DNA from: Escherichia coli
GTDB lineage: Bacteria; Pseudomonadota; Gammaproteobacteria; Enterobacterales; Enterobacteriaceae
Strand: one strand, 5' to 3'
Length of the DNA: 64,000 bases
NCBI RefSeq assembly: GCF_030013595.1
Contig: NZ_CP122768.1
The notes under the pieces were generated by a model. The model searched no databases. It had not been told where the DNA came from and saw nothing but the letters and a program-made list of their open reading frames with translations. This document shows, one piece after another, positions 14,350-27,863 of the stretch (the stretch's first letter is position 1; each line of letters opens with the position of its first letter). A program made the translations under genes and the position numbers.

Positions 14350-14425
<76 letters not shown>

Positions 14426-14479
14426 GTTTAAAAGGCATCGGCGTCAAGCGGATGTCTGGCTGAAAGGCCTGAAGAATTT

Positions 14480-14553
14480 GGCGCGTTAACAAAGCGGTTA
14501 TGTAGCGGATTGCAAATCCGTCTAGTCCGGTTCGACTCCGGAACGCGCCTCCA
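14480..14553 (+). tRNA. cysT: tRNA-Cys (GCA)
   Basis: GGCGCGTTAACAAAGCGGTTATGTAGCGGATTGCAAATCCGTCTAGTCCGGTTCGACTCCGGAACGCGCCTCCA read directly. Confidence 0.92.
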
Positions 14554-14565
14554 CTTTCTTCCCGA

Positions 14566-14652
14566 GCCCGGATGGTGGAATCGGTAGACACAAGGGATTT
14601 AAAATCCCTCGGCGTTCGCGCTGTGCGGGTTCAAGTCCCGCTCCGGGTACCA
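14566..14652 (+). tRNA. leuZ: tRNA-Leu (TAA), long-variable-arm type; 3' part lies inside prophage attL
   Basis: GCCCGGATGGTGGAATCGGTAGACACAAGGGATTTAAAATCCC...GGTTCAAGTCCCGCTCCGGGTACCA read directly. Confidence 0.92.
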
Positions 14653-14722
14653 TGGGAAAGATGAGAATAAAATCAAAGCAATAAGCAGTGTCGTGAAACC
14701 ACCTTCGGGTGGTTTTTTTGTG
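14597..14722. repeat. Prophage attL: 126-bp direct repeat (3' 56 nt of tRNA-Leu plus downstream terminator)
   Basis: Same 126 bp at 60374..60499 with one mismatch (gatgaga vs gataaga); flanks differ on both sides. Confidence 0.85.
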
Positions 14723-14782
14723 TCTTCTTTCTCATTTCCGAAGATGCGTCCGAAGATGATTTTTCTCTGGACGCATCATCAT

Positions 14783-15826: not shown

Positions 15827-16031
15827 CTTCTTTTCGCGTCGTCACCTCCTGTAAATTGCGAAATTTTATTGGGTTCAAGAAATGGCCCCAGGTTGTTTTT
15901 GGGTGCCCGTCAGCCCTTTCCATGAAGAAAATTCCAGCCCGGCGAAGAGCCTCACATTGCTTTGATTTAAGTGGGCTTCCCGTCAGCTCGACCATTTCTT
16001 CTCTGGTGATTATGTCGTGATCGCTTTTCAT
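15768..16031 (-). CDS. Putative excisionase / small DNA-binding protein
   Basis: 87-aa ORF immediately upstream of int and overlapping its start, as for lambdoid xis; no diagnostic motif. Confidence 0.35.
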   Translation of the reverse strand: MKSDHDIITREEMVELTGSPLKSKQCEALRRAGIFFMERADGHPKTTWGHFLNPIKFRNLQEVTTRKEDEPDFGAIFNGRKEKEPSR

Positions 16032-16240
16032 GGTCTTTCCTCATTATGTAGCTTATTGCGTCATCTGCCTTCTGGCAGGCACGGGCAATATCAGACTCGG
16101 TCAAAGTCTGTTTCCTGACGCTGGCCGACAGTCGGCCAATTTTGATATCAAATGCGGAGAGCAGAGTTGCTCCCGGTTGCCATCGCAGCATTGTGATCCT
16201 CCGGTTACTGGTGAAACGCAATGCTAGCGATGGTGAGTTT

Positions 16241-16992: not shown

Positions 16993-19214
16993 GCTGTTTG
17001 CTCCTGTGCTGCGGTGAGGGCGGTGAGGCGTTCGGTTTTGATTTCATTCAAACGGCGCAGGCGCGAACCAAGATAAGTTGAATACTCCTTATCACCTTTG
17101 GATTCTGCGGCCTTGCGGTGAACTTCTACTTCCCGCGCAATAAGGCCATAGACTTTATTAACTTCATTGGGGGTTACGGCTGCAGCCAGTGTTTTGGCAA
17201 CACCTGAGAGTCGTTCATCCAGTTCTTCACGCAGTCGGGTAGCATCCTCTGCTTTCTCGCTTGCCTTCTTAATACTGTATTCTGTATTCAGCTCGGCGGT
17301 GTAGGCACTATCGTTATGCATATCCATATAAACATCTGCCGCAAATCCCAGATGAGATAGTGCTTTGACGGTGGCATCAGTAAGAGACTTTTTGGAGGCC
17401 TCTTTTTCCATTACCAGTGCCCCTTTGTTATTTTTTGATATGTAATCCGTGTGGCCATATGACGGAATAAATCCTTTCACTCCGTTCCAGATGTACCAGA
17501 GATCTATCCGGATGGTGTGTACTGACAGGCAGAACAGGGAACCGTCAGCATCCCTGACAGGTTTTTGTCCAATAATTTTCCCTGTCTGATCCTGTATAGG
17601 TTCAAGTAATGGCACACCGCGATCCACTCGCTCCTCCTTGATTTCAACTCCCCAACCAATGCCTTCCATTCCCAGCACTTCAGTCGCACGCATCAAAATA
17701 TATTGTGCGCGTATGGAGTGCAGTCCTGCACCGTAATCATTATGTGTGACATACGCAGGATCGGTCCGCTGAACGCGATTCCAGATAGCCAAATTTGCTT
17801 TGCTCTGGTCATCATTCATTGCTGACAGATAATGCTCCATGCGAATTGATGCAGTTTTTTCCTCGGCATGGGGCGGCTCAACCAGCGCGTCAACGTTCTG
17901 CACCAGGTCTTTTACCTGCTCGCTAAGTTTTTCTTGTGGAGGAGTCTCTTCTGCCGGGGTAATAGCTGCAGGTTCCCTCTGTGATACGGCGTTATTTTCA
18001 GGTACGTCATACACATGGCGAGGCGTGACAAACTGCTCACGCAACTGCTGCAAACTACGTTCTCCAGCATTTGCTGCTTCGCTTTTTTCGCCCTGATTTG
18101 AGGGTGTTTCTGACATCATTCCATCAATTGAGAATCGCCCGCCGCCGTGGTTGGTGACTTTTACATCATCCTTTGGTGCTGTTTCCTTTGGCTTCTCTTC
18201 AACAGCATTTGCATCACGCTGCCCGTTAGCTTGCAGCCAGTTGTCGATGTGACTGCGCAGGGATTGCGGGAAGTGGTACGTGTCTTTTGCGGGGGCGCTC
18301 TGAATAACACCGAATACTGATGCGCGGTCATAGGCAAGGATCTGATCCGTTGTGCGCAAGGCCATTGACCAGCGTTTAAAATCCTCCCGATCCTGGCTGA
18401 TTATTTCGTCTGCCGCTTTCAGGACGCTGGGGGTGATTTTTTCCGGGCCAACGGGTAACAGGGCGCAGGCAATTTCACGATCCAGTGTGGCGTGAGTCTG
18501 TTGGTAAGGACGTGCGGATGCTGTTTCTGGTTTTACCTCCGGCAGCATTTCATCGCGTTTACCGGGATTCTCTACCCATTTTTTTATAAATTTGGAGATA
18601 GTCCAACTGGTCGGGTTTTGTTCCTGGGTATCGCAACTTGCCAAAATTGCATGTACCAGATTATTCAATCCAGCAATATGCATGTACTCGATGGGCTTAC
18701 ACGCCACCATGGCATCAAGAACGATGCGGTTAAACGCGTCAACCTCATCCTCACTGTCAGTATCACTGTTGTCGAGCATCTCCAGGTATTCACGCGTCTG
18801 CGCAAGCAATTCACTGTCGACTTCGTTGGCGTCGTGGCTGAACAGCAGGACGGCGGCGAAGCGTTCACGAGCCGGCAGTTTCATCAGGTCGTTAACCTGT
18901 GCGATATCTGCTGAACCGCTATCTGAATCAGCGGGGGTGTTAACTACCCATTTTTCGCCATCAAAACTGTGTTCTGTGGCAAACGTCTCATCAAACTCAC
19001 CGACGCCAGGGCGCGGTTGGCCCGGGGCATCTTCCCAGATTTTAGGTTTGAAATAGTTGTCGCCGTGGTCAGGGTAGGCTTCCCACAATTTGCCGATGAT
19101 GATGTTCTCGGCAACTTTTTTGTTAGGGGCGTCGATGGCGATGGCCAGCGCCGGGATCGCGCCGTTTTTGAGCGCGCCTTTTTTCGCTTCTAACAAGCCG
19201 TTAAAGATGGTCAT
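16989..19214 (-). CDS. Large early protein with C-terminal Erf/Rad52-type single-strand annealing domain (tentative)
   Basis: 741-aa ORF, RBS GAGGAAAGACCA before ATG; C-terminal ...KEASKKSLTDATVKALSHLGFAADVY resembles the Erf signature; N-terminal ~450 aa acidic, unrecognised. Confidence 0.5.
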   Translation of the reverse strand: MTIFNGLLEAKKGALKNGAIPALAIAIDAPNKKVAENIIIGKLWEAYPDHGDNYFKPKIWEDAPGQPRPGVGEFDETFATEHSFDGEKWVVNTPADSDSGSADIAQVNDLMKLPARERFAAVLLFSHDANEVDSELLAQTREYLEMLDNSDTDSEDEVDAFNRIVLDAMVACKPIEYMHIAGLNNLVHAILASCDTQEQNPTSWTISKFIKKWVENPGKRDEMLPEVKPETASARPYQQTHATLDREIACALLPVGPEKITPSVLKAADEIISQDREDFKRWSMALRTTDQILAYDRASVFGVIQSAPAKDTYHFPQSLRSHIDNWLQANGQRDANAVEEKPKETAPKDDVKVTNHGGGRFSIDGMMSETPSNQGEKSEAANAGERSLQQLREQFVTPRHVYDVPENNAVSQREPAAITPAEETPPQEKLSEQVKDLVQNVDALVEPPHAEEKTASIRMEHYLSAMNDDQSKANLAIWNRVQRTDPAYVTHNDYGAGLHSIRAQYILMRATEVLGMEGIGWGVEIKEERVDRGVPLLEPIQDQTGKIIGQKPVRDADGSLFCLSVHTIRIDLWYIWNGVKGFIPSYGHTDYISKNNKGALVMEKEASKKSLTDATVKALSHLGFAADVYMDMHNDSAYTAELNTEYSIKKASEKAEDATRLREELDERLSGVAKTLAAAVTPNEVNKVYGLIAREVEVHRKAAESKGDKEYSTYLGSRLRRLNEIKTERLTALTAAQEQTA

Positions 19215-19244
19215 TGGTCTTTCCTCATTACAGGTCAGTGGTCT

Positions 19245-19565
19245 TTAGTAGGGGATTTCATCAGTATCTGGCGTGTATTCGATGCAAAGTAACTGCTGGA
19301 TTTTGTCATCGATAGCAGCAATACGCTGTTGGGCGTCGGCGACTGTTTTCTGTTTTTGCTCATACAGCTGCTCGACCTGCAAACCGATGATGTCGATTGG
19401 CTGGGGCTGGTTGACGGTAATTTCAATTTCGCGGCTTTCCAGAAGGATGTACCTGTCTGGAAAATTTTTTGACATATCAACAGTCGCAACAAGCAGCTTT
19501 TCGTGGCTGAAAGTTGAAGTTGCATAATTAATAAAGAGTGTTACTGGGATGGTGCGCGCTTCCAT
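19245..19565 (-). CDS. Hypothetical early-left operon protein
   Basis: 106-aa ORF with AAGGAG RBS; first gene after the ORF-poor leader. Confidence 0.45.
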   Translation of the reverse strand: MEARTIPVTLFINYATSTFSHEKLLVATVDMSKNFPDRYILLESREIEITVNQPQPIDIIGLQVEQLYEQKQKTVADAQQRIAAIDDKIQQLLCIEYTPDTDEIPY

Positions 19566-20416
19566 AGCGACTCCTTGGTGATGTATACTCGGGACCGATC
19601 AGCGAATATTGATCAGCTTCCATAGCGTCAGTGTCGTTGGTCTTTCCTCATCACAAGTTTGGTCACTTGTGATAAATCCGAATGGTTTGGTCGCCGTTCG
19701 GGGTAACTGGCCCGCCTTGTGCGGGTCTTTTGCTATCTAAAGGGTGCCGGTTACGTTTCCGGCGTCGTTATGTTTCCATCACGACCGTACGGGGCTGGTC
19801 TTTCCTGTTTTGAGCTGGTCAGGCTCATGGTCAACGCTGGTCAGGCGTGGTACTTCCTCCGGTCTTTCCCTGGTGTCACGCTGCGGGTTTGGCCTCTCCT
19901 GTTGGGGACTCAGGCACAGCGATAAAACCTGGCTGTGTGAAAAAATGGCCCATCGTGCGGACTGGGCAAAGGCTAAACACAGCAAATTGATGATGGGCGC
20001 CCGGAATCGAACCGGGTAACGGGCAGGGAGTTCCCGTTAAACACCTGTTCACCACAACCGGGAGCGCACTCCGCCATTTCAAAATTTAACGACAAAGCTC
20101 AAAGTTGAGTCGATGAAGTGCGCTCTCGTGTTGTAGCCAGGACTCTTCCCTGGTGGTCACACCGTATCGCCTTGATGGTGAATCAATCGCTCATACCTGG
20201 CTGTGGCTTGCACATTCCGGCTAGCTGCTATGGAGACAACGCGTTAAGGCTCCGCTTCCATCCAGACCGCTTCGACACATGTGCCATATGCCGGCGAAGT
20301 CTTTCCCTCTGTCATCGTGTTGGCGCCGACGCGCAAAATTTGATGCCGTCTTTCCGGCTGTCAGAACGTGTTTCTGAACAACTGCCGCTGGGTAAGCGTT
20401 GTTGATGAAAGTGACT

Positions 20417-20436
20417 TTACAATTTGTATTTGTAAT
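20417..20436. promoter_or_regulatory. Putative left operator (OL-like) palindrome
   Basis: ttacaatttgtatttgtaat with TTACAA / TTGTAA half-sites, same half-site as at 21010..21048 on the other side of the repressor gene. Confidence 0.4.
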
Positions 20437-20561
20437 GGTCAACGTATTTTTAAAAAATAATTTGTAGTTAGGGGCAAAAAAATATTCACTGTGTAAAGGT
20501 GTTTTTGTGTTAGGGGGAAAGTTGCATGCCAGCAGCGGCTGGCCTGGAAATTTGAACTGAA

Positions 20562-20975
20562 CTATTTTGTCTGGTTTTTGGCTTCAAGTAGTTCTTTTAG
20601 CAGTAGATCGAAGTGCTCTCTTTTTTCTTTTAGCTCATTGATTAATTTATTTTTTTCGCTCTCAGGCAGTCCTCTGAATAGTTGCAGTAGAGCCTGTTCT
20701 TGCGGGGTTAGTTCTTGATTGTAATTACCCGGGTGTAGCGTGGATTCATCCAAATATTCACCTTCATTCATGAAGAAAAAATGAACAGGGTATCCGGTCA
20801 CTTTTGCTAGCTTGTCTAATTTATCTTTTCTTGGAGTTACCCCATTACACCATGCCTGAACTGATTGAGCCGTAACCCCAATATGGCGAGCTAACTCAGA
20901 TTGAGACCAGCCTAAGTCTTTTAGAATCCGTTGTAGTCGGCTAGCAAAAGCCATGTTTTTCGTTTTTGTGTTCAT
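20562..20975 (-). CDS. Prophage repressor (CI/RacR-like, XRE-family HTH)
   Basis: HTH LGWSQSELARHIGVTAQSVQAWCNG; divergent from cro-like gene; exact start uncertain (track ORF extends to 20990 with TTG). Confidence 0.6.
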   Translation of the reverse strand: MNTKTKNMAFASRLQRILKDLGWSQSELARHIGVTAQSVQAWCNGVTPRKDKLDKLAKVTGYPVHFFFMNEGEYLDESTLHPGNYNQELTPQEQALLQLFRGLPESEKNKLINELKEKREHFDLLLKELLEAKNQTK

Positions 20976-21009
20976 ACCGTAAGGATACAAGGTTTAATTG
21001 TAGGGAGCA

Positions 21010-21048
21010 TTGCAAATATAATTTGTAATTACAGTTATGATTTGTAAT
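21010..21048. promoter_or_regulatory. Putative right operator region (OR-like) between repressor and cro-like gene
   Basis: ttgcaaatataatttgtaa palindrome plus a second atttgtaat half-site. Confidence 0.45.
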
Positions 21049-21073
21049 GATGGCGCGGACACAAGGAGTCCAT

Positions 21074-21304
21074 ATGGATAAACAACTGCAAGACAAAATT
21101 CTTTCCGTAATGAGTCAATCCGAGTTAGGGCGGCGATTAGGGAAAAAACCACAAACGGTAAGCCTCTGGTTCAAAGGAAGGGTTCCCGGTGAAGAGGTTT
21201 TGCGCACATCTGAAGCTCTTGAATGGCGCGTGACCCCCCATGATCTTAGACCGGATCTTTACCCAAACCCAGATGACAGCTTGCCTAAAACGAAAGCAGC
21301 TTAA
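21074..21304 (+). CDS. Cro/YdaS-like HTH regulator
   Basis: AAGGAG RBS before MDKQLQDKIL...; HTH SQSELGRRLGKKPQTVSLWFKG; divergent from repressor. Confidence 0.55.
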   Translation: MDKQLQDKILSVMSQSELGRRLGKKPQTVSLWFKGRVPGEEVLRTSEALEWRVTPHDLRPDLYPNPDDSLPKTKAA

Positions 21305-21362
21305 CTGTTGGTGAGCCCCAAATCTGATTAAGCGTAATCAATTTTTAGCGACAGGAGACGCT

Positions 21363-21839
21363 ATGGAAAACCAAGAGGAATTACAAAAAGAGATTTTGAC
21401 CTGGGCGGCAAGGGCAGGGCAGGAACTCGTCACGATTGAAATCTGCCGGGCCTGGTTCAGTCAGGGACGCAATGATGAGTTGAGACTACATGAATTTGAG
21501 GACGCGGACGGCAATGTGGACTGGAGAGCCATCAACAACAATCGGCAGAAAATCTTTCGCTGGTTACGTGGCGAGACAACGGCGGCGCGCCGAAAAACTC
21601 AGGTGCTGGCCAGTGTGATGAAAGCCGTGCTACCCGCAGAACGGCGGGCGCGTCTGGAGTCGCCGGGCGATCCCGTTTTGCTGGCAACGCTGGCGGCAAA
21701 AGAAGGGGTGGAAGCGATTAACGCTGTACATCTCCACTTCGCGCCAGAGATAACTATTCAGGAAATTGACGAAGCAATAGCGGCGCTGGTAGCGACGCGA
21801 GGGGCAGTGATAAGCACTGCGCAAGGCCATCATGCATGA
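21363..21839 (+). CDS. YdaT-like / CII-like early regulator
   Basis: 158 aa; ...NRQKIFRWLRGET... resembles Rac YdaT as I recall; position after cro. Confidence 0.45.
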   Translation: MENQEELQKEILTWAARAGQELVTIEICRAWFSQGRNDELRLHEFEDADGNVDWRAINNNRQKIFRWLRGETTAARRKTQVLASVMKAVLPAERRARLESPGDPVLLATLAAKEGVEAINAVHLHFAPEITIQEIDEAIAALVATRGAVISTAQGHHA

Positions 21840-21878
21840 GCGCCTGACCAGCGTTTAACTTATACCGAGGAAAGACCG

Positions 21879-22103
21879 ATGTTAAGACATATTGACCGCA
21901 TTACCTGGCGTAACGGCTGGCACCTGAATGGACGCCCGGCACATGTTGCAGAGATCCAACCTATTTTTGATGGGCGTATGGCTGCCGCGCTTTCGGTGTG
22001 GGAGCAGTATGAATCCAGGAAGGTCGAGTTGCGCGACAAAGGGCTGAGCAATGCGGACTATGAAGCCGGTTGTCGTCAGATAGCCGAAGCTCTGGAGATC
22101 TGA
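21879..22103 (+). CDS. Hypothetical early protein
   Basis: 74-aa ORF preceded by the recurring ACCGAGGAAAGACC leader motif. Confidence 0.4.
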   Translation: MLRHIDRITWRNGWHLNGRPAHVAEIQPIFDGRMAAALSVWEQYESRKVELRDKGLSNADYEAGCRQIAEALEI

Positions 22104-24570: not shown

Positions 24571-24608
24571 CCACGCATGACCAGCGTGAAATAACCGAGG
24601 AAAGACCA

Positions 24609-25019
24609 ATGACCACCATTTCAGGCAAATTAGAGTACCCGTCGGACAAAGGACACATAGACGACGGTAAAAACTATCTCGACGTCATTTTGTGGAATAT
24701 GAACGCCGGGCCACGTGCGCGCACTCGTGCGGTTTTTGTACCAAGACCCAAAGCAGGCAATTTTTCAACACCAGCTCAGCCTGCCCGTCAGGCATCCGTA
24801 GCCGCAGCGCCAGCAGTGAAATGTAAGGGTAAAACGCACATCGGGATCGCGATTCGCAGAAATGGTGAGCGGCAAGTGAAACTCCACGAAACAGCGACAA
24901 CCTGGTGTGCTTCACCGCATGAAACTTACGACAAGATAACCGGGCAGCGCATTGGTGCGCCTGGTCGCTGTCGCCTGCTGTTGAGCTCCATCACTCCGAT
25001 AGAAAAGAAAGGGGCGTGA
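24609..25019 (+). CDS. Hypothetical nin-region protein
   Basis: 136-aa ORF preceded by ACCGAGGAAAGACCA leader motif. Confidence 0.4.
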   Translation: MTTISGKLEYPSDKGHIDDGKNYLDVILWNMNAGPRARTRAVFVPRPKAGNFSTPAQPARQASVAAAPAVKCKGKTHIGIAIRRNGERQVKLHETATTWCASPHETYDKITGQRIGAPGRCRLLLSSITPIEKKGA

Positions 25020-26649: not shown

Positions 26650-26976
26650 ATGACTAAAAATACTCGTTTTTCCCCCGAAGTCCGTCAGCGGGCGATTCGT
26701 ATGGTTCTGGAAAGTCAGGATGAATATGACTCACAGTGGGCGGCAATTTGTTCCATTGCCCCAAAGATTGGCTGTACGCCGGAGACTCTGCGTGTCTGGG
26801 TTCGCCAGCATGAGCGGGATACCGGGGGCGGTGATGGTGGGCTCACCAGCGCTGAACGTCAGCGTCTGAAAGAGCTGGAACGTGAAAATCGTGAACTGCG
26901 CCGCAGTAACGATATCCTTCGCCAGGCTTCCGCTTATTTTGCGAAGGCGGAGTTCGACCGCCTCTGGAAAAAATGA
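26650..26976 (+). CDS. IS3-family transposase OrfA (HTH)
   Basis: [41 protein letters not shown]...; ends in AAAAAATGA frameshift window (A-run 26968-26973). Confidence 0.85.
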
Positions 26977-27863
26977 TGCCACTGCTGGATAAGCTGCGTG
27001 AGCAGTACGGGGTCGGACCGGTATGTAGCGAACTGCATATTGCCCCGTCAACGTATTACCATTGTCAGCAACAGCGACATCATCCGGATAAACGCAGTGC
27101 CCGTGCGCAGCACGATGACTGGCTGAAGAAAGAGATACAGCGCGTATACGATGAAAATCACCAGGTATACGGTGTGCGTAAAGTCTGGCGTCAGTTGTTA
27201 CGGGAAGGTATCAGAGTGGCCAGATGCACTGTGGCACGTCTCATGGCAGTTATGGGACTTGCCGGTGTTCTCCGGGGTAAAAAGGTCCGCACTACCGTCA
27301 GCCGGAAAGCCGTTGCCGCAGGCGACCGCGTAAACCGTCAGTTCGTGGCAGAACGACCTGACCAGCTGTGGGTGGCTGATTTTACTTACGTCAGCACATG
27401 GCAGGGCTTCGTCTATGTGGCGTTTATCATTGATGTGTTTGCCGGATACATCGTGGGGTGGCGGGTCTCATCGTCTATGGAAACGACATTCGTGCTGGAT
27501 GCGCTGGAGCAGGCGTTGTGGGCCCGTCGTCCGTCTGGCACCATCCATCACAGCGATAAAGGCTCTCAGTATGTGTCACTGGCCTATACGGAGCGACTAA
27601 AAGAAGCCGGATTACTGGCATCAACAGGGAGTACAGGCGACTCGTATGACAACGCGATGGCTGAGAGCATCAATGGTCTTTACAAAGCGGAGGTAATACA
27701 CCGTAAGAGCTGGAAAAAACGTGCAGAAGTGGAACTGGCCACACTAACGTGGGTGGACTGGTATAACAATCGACGATTGCTGGGAAGGCTGGGCCATACT
27801 CCTCCGGCAGAAGCAGAAAAAGCTTATTATGCTTCCATCGGAAACGATGATCTGGCAGCCTGA
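26973..27863 (+). CDS. IS3-family transposase OrfB (DDE catalytic domain), -1 frame relative to OrfA
   Basis: 296 aa with DDE integrase-core-like region (...[31 protein letters not shown]...[10 protein letters not shown]...[15 protein letters not shown]). Confidence 0.85.

Follow-up and report, generated by a model that had tools for sequence, protein, structure and literature searches.

A predicted tRNA-like domain in the early-left leader of a lambdoid prophage lies at the tRNA position of a modular phage RNA

We analysed a 64,000-nucleotide stretch of Escherichia coli DNA (hereafter the window), which carries a lambdoid-type prophage adjoining leuZ. In a RefSeq genome that is 100% identical to it, the minus-strand genes are those for the integrase, DUF4224, Gp157, an exonuclease and a 106-aa protein. 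Beyond the 106-aa gene lies about 1 kb without annotation, then an HTH repressor gene, followed by a divergent cro-like gene, YdaT and DnaB. An IS3-family insertion sequence (26650-27863, plus strand), with an ALIL frameshift pseudoknot at 26931-27047, sits among the early-right genes of the prophage, and the identical RefSeq strain has a further IS3 copy, inserted in its exonuclease gene. The features of the region between the repressor gene and the 106-aa gene, in the order of leftward transcription, are as follows.

20414..20442, minus strand: PL-like sigma-70 promoter, TTGACC-17-TAAAGT, the sole promoter-like site in 19200-21400
About 20405, minus strand: start of the conserved leader, about 7-10 nt past the promoter, at CATCAAC just after the -10
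20137..20293, minus strand: conserved 5' domain ('domain X'), with the CGGCAUAUGGCACAUGUGUCG hairpin, GGUAGCCGGAAUGUGCAAGCC, UUCACCAUC..GGCGAUACGGUGUGAC and then a CCAGG-GAAGAGU-CCUGG hairpin
20115..20134, minus strand: ACAAC and the 5' strand of the long-range helix P1 (GAGAGCGCACUUC), from RNAalifold and family covariation
20054..20072, minus strand: 3' strand of P1 (GGAGUGCGCUCCC, 20072-20060), a G, and GUUGU (20058-20054)
19996..20053, minus strand: predicted tRNA-like cloverleaf of four arms, about 58 nt, from RNAalifold and covariation
20053-20050 with 19999-19996, minus strand: its acceptor-like stem, GGUG with CGCC
20049-20040, minus strand: its arm 1, D-like, AAC-AGGU-GUU with an invariant GG
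20039-20017, minus strand: its arm 2, UAACGGG-AACUCCCUG-CCCGUUA
20016-20000, minus strand: its T-arm, CCCGG-UUCGAUU-CCGGG
19940..19988, minus strand: module like processed RprA, with the AAUUUGCUGUGUUUAGCCUUU seed, a terminator hairpin GCCCA...UGGGC (19967-19948) and a U-tract (19945-19940)
19967-19940, minus strand: intrinsic terminator, from terminator prediction
19566..19939, minus strand: distal leader, containing additional hairpins and RBS-like GGAAAGAC copies and extending to the first gene
19565-19245, minus strand: first gene of the leftward operon, 106 aa

Among 34 distinct homologous loci, the promoter/operator DNA varied by immunity type and conservation began at CATCAAC. We therefore concluded that ~20405 to 19566, a segment of about 840 nt, makes up the early-left operon's leader. 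Of 5426 complete E. coli genomes, 479 contained it, so that this prophage type occurs in about 9% of them, and it was never annotated there; RefSeq (PGAP) likewise had nothing annotated at the element described below.

The original prediction had noticed a tRNA-like T-arm hairpin on the minus strand of the early leader. On re-reading 20040-19991, we obtained the sequence exactly as it had been quoted (TTAACGGGAACTCCCTGCCCGTTACCCGGTTCGATTCCGGGCGCCCATCA), and the placement was also right, as the hairpin lies about 350 nt into the leader, between the promoter (20442-20414) and the terminator (19967-19940) and ahead of the first gene of the leftward operon, which begins at 19565. The arm consists of CCCGG (20016-20012), TTCGATT (20011-20005) and CCGGG (20004-20000), and its RNA has a 7-nt loop, UUCGAUU, on a 5-bp stem whose last pair is G-C. 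It is a perfect match to the consensus, with the stem ending at G53-C61 and the loop reading U54-U55-C56-R57-A58-N-N. A second hairpin, arm 2 (TAACGGG at 20039-20033, the 9-nt loop, CCCGTTA at 20023-20017), abuts the T-stem with zero spacer. From shuffles, 0.04 copies of the T-loop core GGTTCGAWTCC would be expected; the 64-kb window has one.

Conservation of the element in related prophages, the absence of which, along with that of any tRNA-like hit, had been put forward as decisive against it, was then evident in homologous leaders. A scan of viral contigs with the neighbouring GGCGGAGTGCGCTCCC returned about 38 of them. All had GGCGGAGTGCGCTCCC and, further 3', AAUUGCUGUGUGUAGUCUU(U/G)GC and a terminator with a variable stem sequence; the variable module between these two landmarks fell into five types.

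Type A, Escherichia including the window: tRNA-like piece
Type A', three contigs (two viral, one from a metagenome): tRNA-like piece with changes
Type A'': tRNA-like piece kept; the leader diverges right after CCGGGCGC and has neither seed nor terminator
Type B, e.g. 'Stenotrophomonas' phage BUCT708: a CACG-UAGCCAG-CGUG hairpin and no more
Type C, L129, a further integrative element: module nearly absent

The A'' leaders (L148, L150, L154, L232 and L252) have a recombination junction directly after CCGGGCGC. As they keep the tRNA-like domain without the RprA-like module, the two modules are separable and not obligatorily coupled, and the internal terminator is dispensable. Types B and C, with a small hairpin and with nothing, respectively, indicate that the tRNA-like module is itself dispensable for the family. 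The module was also found in E. whittamii and in viral and metagenome contigs. Further lineages were not obtained from a scan of genome contigs (E. whittamii only), from a metagenome scan (8 loci, no new variants) or with the 106-aa neighbour as a protein anchor (close relatives only).

Is the element a tRNA? In its default mode ARAGORN found glyW, cysT and leuZ (14350-14652) as the only tRNAs of the window and no canonical tRNA gene at 19985-20070, and its tmRNA search was negative. Rfam at gathering thresholds returned those three tRNAs and the IS3 pseudoknot only, with neither a tRNA nor a tmRNA match at the element. The relaxed ARAGORN mode suggested with the original prediction did give calls there, but the identities disagreed between lineages (Val, none, Gly), and on these ARAGORN and Rfam results we rejected a real tRNA or tmRNA. 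The geometry also departs from that of a tRNA: the acceptor-like stem has 4-5 bp, and arm 2 has 7 bp and a loop of 8-9 nt, where a canonical tRNA has a 7-bp acceptor, a 5-bp anticodon stem, a 7-nt loop and CCA. That the element has no CCA end was correctly stated at the outset; 3' of the T-arm the sequence runs on as CGCCC-A-UCA in type A and CACCC-A-ACC in A'. Under permissive Rfam settings a tRNA-Sec alignment reached 19.3 bits (gathering score 47), overlapped on its 3' side by an RprA match of 34 bits. We rejected the acceptor stem of the tRNA-Sec alignment (GGAGUGCGC/GCGCCCAUC), which is broken in A' without compensation; GGAGUGCGCUC is the 3' strand of helix P1. A blastn comparison with tRNA and tmRNA genes had been proposed as a further check. 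A 91-nt query against 50,697 phage records matched through the T-arm only (18-19 nt, E of at least 3), which lent no support to a specific tRNA origin. The 17-mer T-arm is found in many viral tRNAs and tmRNAs, and its flanks are common to none.

The original prediction also held that the element cannot be folded into a complete cloverleaf, and this did not stand. From the A and A' sequences, RNAalifold predicted a compact four-arm junction immediately 3' of a 13-bp helix, P1, that is consistent with all substitutions seen. Types A and A' are about 23% diverged, and each of the nine stem substitutions between them keeps the pairing. Compensatory double changes were observed at four pairs (three in the 7-bp hairpin, and the first T-stem pair, from C-G to U-A), and one-sided changes through G-U at three more; these counts come from three lineages and essentially one independent divergence, A vs A'. 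Over five distinct sequences 98% of the stem cells are paired, the unpaired ones being solely those of the optional pair G20055-C19995 in two A'' sequences; this pair was counted in the covariation and conflicts with the ACAAC/GUUGU pairing. None of 500 shuffles did equally well, nor did any slid register. The T-loop is invariant in all lineages, the other loops, that of arm 2 included, vary, and the G-U intermediates are compatible with a minus-strand RNA only. The minimum-free-energy fold of the A'' variant is the cloverleaf, while A' has a competing, more stable fold, and, with z of -0.7 to -1.0, the folding energy is unremarkable. Despite the single divergence, the predicted junction and the pair-preserving changes lead us to conclude that the element, as modelled, is a constrained tRNA-like RNA domain and not a tRNA. 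The noticed pair of hairpins is thus part of a small tRNA-shaped domain within a long conserved non-coding RNA.

The rest of this RNA was traced next. By blastn, the leader part 20293-20122 matched non-coding DNA of the epsilon15-like phages SPN1S, Tyrion and PAT1, of Klebsiella phages and of the P1-like phage SJ46. With a 20-mer of domain X as anchor (GTAGCCGGAATGTGCAAGCC), more than 120 viral contigs and 130 unique loci were collected. Rfam has no family for domain X or for any of these units. Domain X is a conserved stretch of about 160 nt with long invariant segments (GGUAGCCGGAAUGUGCAAGCC, UCACCAUCGUGGCGAUACGGUGUGAC), and P1 is flanked by ACAAC...GUUGU, of which the GUUGU at 20058-20054 can pair with the upstream ACAAC. 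The structured RNA occurs at 20137-20293 and 20054-20134 of the window (minus strand), at 2501-2790 of L004, and in the more than 120 viral contigs (L266-L374). We rejected a coding role for a small ORF within domain X (ATGGCACATGTG...); its frame is not conserved and the indels are not multiples of three.

RNAalifold predicted P1 as 13 bp, GAGAGCGCAYUYC with GGAGUGCGCUCCC. Over the family we compared 60 distinct strand pairs, derived from 45 distinct 3' strands; at least 10 of 11 positions were paired in 46 of the 60, and in 49 of the 60 the helix came directly after a YAAC motif, although the strand sequences are wholly different between members (e.g. TGATTCCGATT with AATCGGAATTA). Immediately 3' of P1, the junction GUU|GUGG opens a slot of varying content. 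In SPN1S the order of the unit is promoter, the same 5' domain, a P1-like helix (GAGAGCAUUG/CAGUGCUCUC), CGUU and a genuine tRNA-Arg(UCU), which has the G of GUGG as its base 1, followed by a spacer, a GAUGCUGUGUAG... seed and a terminator. A tRNA-Arg starting exactly at GUU|GUGG was present in 17 of the 130 unique loci, and seven P1-like loci had a tRNA(CAU) about 95 nt upstream of domain X. In other slots there are tRNA-like domains (L280/L332, L315, L261) that have both a D-arm and a T-arm and carry large insertions, and still others have unrelated hairpin domains closed by GUUGUGGUG/CACCACAAC. From this slot survey, the T-arm domain of the window sits where a conserved phage RNA unit has its tRNA slot, and it begins with the same acceptor bases, GUGG. 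The domains of L280/L332, L315 and L261 have a normal-looking acceptor, D-arm and T-arm and, at the place of the anticodon arm, insertions of 14-40 nt; ARAGORN calls a tRNA with an intron in the L315 slot. These domains look like intermediates between a genuine tRNA-Arg and the reduced pseudo-tRNA of the window.

In alignments with BUCT708, SPN1S and ST512-KPC3phi13.3, domain X, the ACAAC/P1/GUUGUGG junction, the seed and the terminator were collinear. Judged from these alignments, the leader family is an unannotated and apparently undescribed modular phage RNA of the order domain X - P1 - slot - seed - terminator.

The host regulator RprA is linked to RpoS, to envelope stress and to biofilm and conjugation control. 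The A' leader matched annotated chromosomal rprA by blastn with 90.4% identity over 52 nt (E = 2e-9; about 4975 E. coli genomes), covering the seed region and the terminator. The match starts at AAUUGCUG, the first base of the 47-nt processed RprA. This form, RprAproc, is the last 47 nt of RprA, coexists with the full-length RNA and has its own regulatory activity (PMC9262595). The window copy (19988-19940) is more diverged, with two seed substitutions relative to RprA. With the model of full-length RprA (RF00034) only the 3' half aligned well, and its 34 bits fell short of the gathering score of 70. The phage module thus resembles the processed form, carrying AAUUGCUGUGUGUAGUCUUUGCCC and the terminator, and differs from RprA in that the 5' two-thirds of the latter, including the narP-pairing region (nts 30-70), are absent. 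These alignments indicate that the phage 3' module is homologous to rprA. The look-alike (seed AAUUGCUGUGUGUAGUCUUUGCC and terminator) lies at 19940-19988 of the window (minus strand), ~3650-3760 of L145 (minus strand) and 8497-8648 of L129. It follows the slot in many phage homologues, and a small integrative element that is unrelated has it at the 3' end of an ORF of 281 aa. For a prophage-borne RprA-like RNA, STnc6030 and the Pas sRNAs, we found no matching description in the literature. A pairing of the seed with sequence just past the terminator (7 bp, GCUGUGU/ACACAGC) was also considered and rejected, since shuffles did as well in about 40% of trials.

Our interpretation starts from the sequence, its context, its conservation and covariation, the positional equivalence to tRNA-Arg and the homology of the 3' module to rprA. 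The suggestion of a tRNA-mimicking RNA element gained support from two of these, namely that the hairpin pair is conserved with compensatory changes and that it sits at the tRNA-Arg position of homologous units; the domain is a tRNA mimic and is probably derived from a tRNA.

We propose that it marks a cut site. Where the slot has a real tRNA-Arg(UCU), maturation must sever the transcript both at GUU|G, by RNase P, and directly 3' of the tRNA, by RNase E with trimming, and would thereby release a 5' structured RNA, the tRNA and an RprAproc-like 3' trailer. In the window the decoding tRNA would have been replaced by, or reduced to, a tRNA-shaped domain. In this domain the T-arm appears to be retained, together with a D-like arm that contains GG and a short helix resembling an acceptor stem; an anticodon arm of the usual geometry and CCA are absent. 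RNase P would recognise the 5' side of this domain near 20056/20055, and RNase E would cut the A/U-rich AUCAUCAAUUU (19994-19984). These cuts would free an RNA of about 49 nt, of the Hfq type and with an RprAproc-like seed. With an acceptor-like stem of 4-5 bp and no CCA, the domain may or may not be recognised by RNase P. The cleavages, the binding of Hfq and any effect on host RprA targets are what we infer from this arrangement. It is probable that the domain marks a site where the transcript is cut; that it is a tRNA-like four-way junction still serving as processing 'punctuation' in the early-left leader we consider an even proposition. The role is proposed from the necessary severing at the real-tRNA slots together with the precedents of 3'ETS-leuZ and of RNase P.

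The first precedent is encoded in the window itself. RNase E excises the trailer 3'ETS-leuZ from the glyW-cysT-leuZ tRNA precursor, and the trailer pairs with Hfq-dependent sRNAs, according to the account of Lalaouna et al. 2015 given in PMC6191717. Like it, the leader has a tRNA-shaped unit directly before a short terminator-ended RNA. The layout of a genuine tRNA 5' of a terminator-bearing trailer is exact in SPN1S and the other homologous units with a genuine tRNA-Arg; the window instead has a pseudo-tRNA there, which is not a functional tRNA, and its trailer is RprA-like and no RyhB/RybB sponge. The unit further differs in lying in a phage early leader behind a structured 5' RNA of about 330 nt, from which its excision is proposed here. 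The second precedent is that E. coli RNase P matures phage leader RNAs, namely P4 CI RNA, P1/P7 C4 RNA and phi80 M3 RNA (PMC5499578). These are likewise small RNAs made from phage leader transcripts, but they are hairpin-like and 'lack a T loop equivalent' (PMC5499578), whereas the leader of the window has a T loop, no Rfam C4 match and no complementary target boxes above shuffles. We rejected a P4 CI/P1 C4-like immunity RNA as the identity of the leader, as the Rfam C4 model gave no match at E≤10.

Outside bacteria, tRNAs or tRNA-like cloverleaves of mitochondrial polycistrons and of MALAT1/mascRNA are the signal for RNase P and a 3' endonuclease that separates the flanking RNAs. The likeness is a cloverleaf inside a longer transcript, and the difference is that those systems are eukaryotic or organellar. 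We know of no example from a bacterial phage leader with a T-loop-bearing pseudo-tRNA. The tRNA-like domains of tmRNA and of YrlA (bacterial Y RNAs) also have a T-arm and an acceptor-like helix without a normal anticodon arm and lie inside larger non-coding RNAs; the window domain differs from them in having no CCA end, tag reading frame or Ro-binding stem, and its context and partners are different.

Among the other readings, the one that survives best is that the T-arm is a structural module of the tertiary fold, docking another RNA part or a protein, and no cleavage signal. T-loops serve as structural modules in RNase P RNA, rRNA and riboswitches. T-loop-like hairpins recur in the P1 interior of SPN1S and SopranoGao (CUGG-UUCAAUU-CCAG, GUUCGAUUCGGAC), the extensive structure of the family and its long invariant single-stranded stretches suggest tertiary contacts, and an invariant T-loop on covarying stems fits such a role. 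However, the domain sits exactly at the position of a genuine tRNA and has the same first bases GUGG. The slot is, moreover, the most variable part of the family and nearly empty in types B and C, which is hard to square with an essential tertiary role. We regard this reading as a minority one, with perhaps a chance in five.

Somewhat less probable is a non-functional relic, a decayed phage tRNA gene carried along in the leader. The silence of ARAGORN by default and its inconsistent relaxed calls, the missing CCA, the inability of arm 2 to decode given its 7-bp stem and 8-9-nt loop, the narrow distribution and the free swapping of slot content among relatives all agree with it. Neutral decay would nevertheless break helices, and here nine out of nine A-A' stem substitutions preserve pairs at that divergence while the 7-nt T-loop is unchanged; in about 25 A-type copies, the stems show just an A-U to G-U change and one single-base deletion. 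A decaying relic is therefore disfavoured by the pair-preserving substitutions. The earlier suggestion of a tRNA gene remnant is plausible only as descent from a phage tRNA in the slot, since the specific match to tRNAs is limited to the generic 17-19-nt T-arm.

That remnant had been taken for a possible old att site, in which case an integrase would have left behind the 3' half of a host tRNA. Prophages often enter tRNA genes and the present one adjoins leuZ, but we rejected this reading as very improbable. The element lies ~4.2 kb from the integrase gene, within a transcribed, constrained RNA, and it has neither identity to the 3' part of leuZ, whose T-arm is different (GCGGG-TTCAAGT-CCCGC), nor a tRNA match past the generic T-arm in viral contigs and phage records. 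The same slot, furthermore, carries complete tRNAs or unrelated domains in non-integrated phage genomes. The leuZ gene and its 3' trailer with the terminator (14653-14720; region 14566-14782, plus strand), the known sRNA sponge 3'ETS-leuZ, are apparently intact. As int starts only past this trailer and terminator, integration took place downstream of the tRNA transcription unit and not inside the tRNA. A chance match to the T-loop consensus, to which a short motif and an unremarkable folding z-score might point, we consider the least credible reading of all and refuted by the conservation of the element, given the rarity of the 11-mer in the window, the compensatory conservation and the positional equivalence to tRNAs.

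Returning to the punctuation reading, we also put forward, tentatively and with less confidence than the reading itself, that these leaders are a widespread undescribed modular RNA family of enterobacterial temperate phages (lambdoid, epsilon15-like and P1-like), in which the tRNA or pseudo-tRNA would be a processing cassette that splits the transcript into a structured RNA of about 300 nt and a mimic of processed RprA in the host Hfq network. If this is true, the conserved 3' half of RprA, a core-genome sRNA, and the phage module would share ancestry, with horizontal transfer in either direction. If the leader is cut as proposed, it would be a bacterial/phage case of tRNA-like "punctuation" making a regulatory small RNA from an operon leader, and of a phage that keeps the processing function of a tRNA after its decoding function was lost. 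Annotation pipelines miss both a phage-borne look-alike of processed RprA and a large conserved phage RNA family that is absent from Rfam.

Some further features of the leader were observed. A terminator-like hairpin with a T-run lies on the plus strand at 19709-19727 inside the leader and gives a weak Trp-leader-like match, a possible sign of antisense transcription or of a terminator that works in both directions. For an HK022 put-like antiterminator, which we rejected, nothing was found in support, and PMC9378689 offers no sequence for comparison. The motif GAGGAAAGACC(A/G)ATG forms the ribosome-binding region of four early genes (19214-19227 and 16031-16043 on the minus strand; 21866-21881 and 24596-24611 on the plus strand). 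The leader has six more GGRAARAS copies on the minus strand, none with a start codon, at 20355-20348, 20306-20299, 20150-20143, 19869-19862, 19805-19798 and 19647-19640, and one leader copy reads GAGGAAAGACCAACG (ATG to ACG). We rejected antitermination of the N/boxB type through GAAAGA-loop hairpins, the 106-aa product of the first gene having no arginine-rich motif. The leader GGRAARAS copies may act as decoys that draw ribosomes or a GGA-binding protein (CsrA, for example), or may be relics of gene junctions; several of them form GAAAGA loops on hairpins of 4-5 bp, the stems of which covary between phages.
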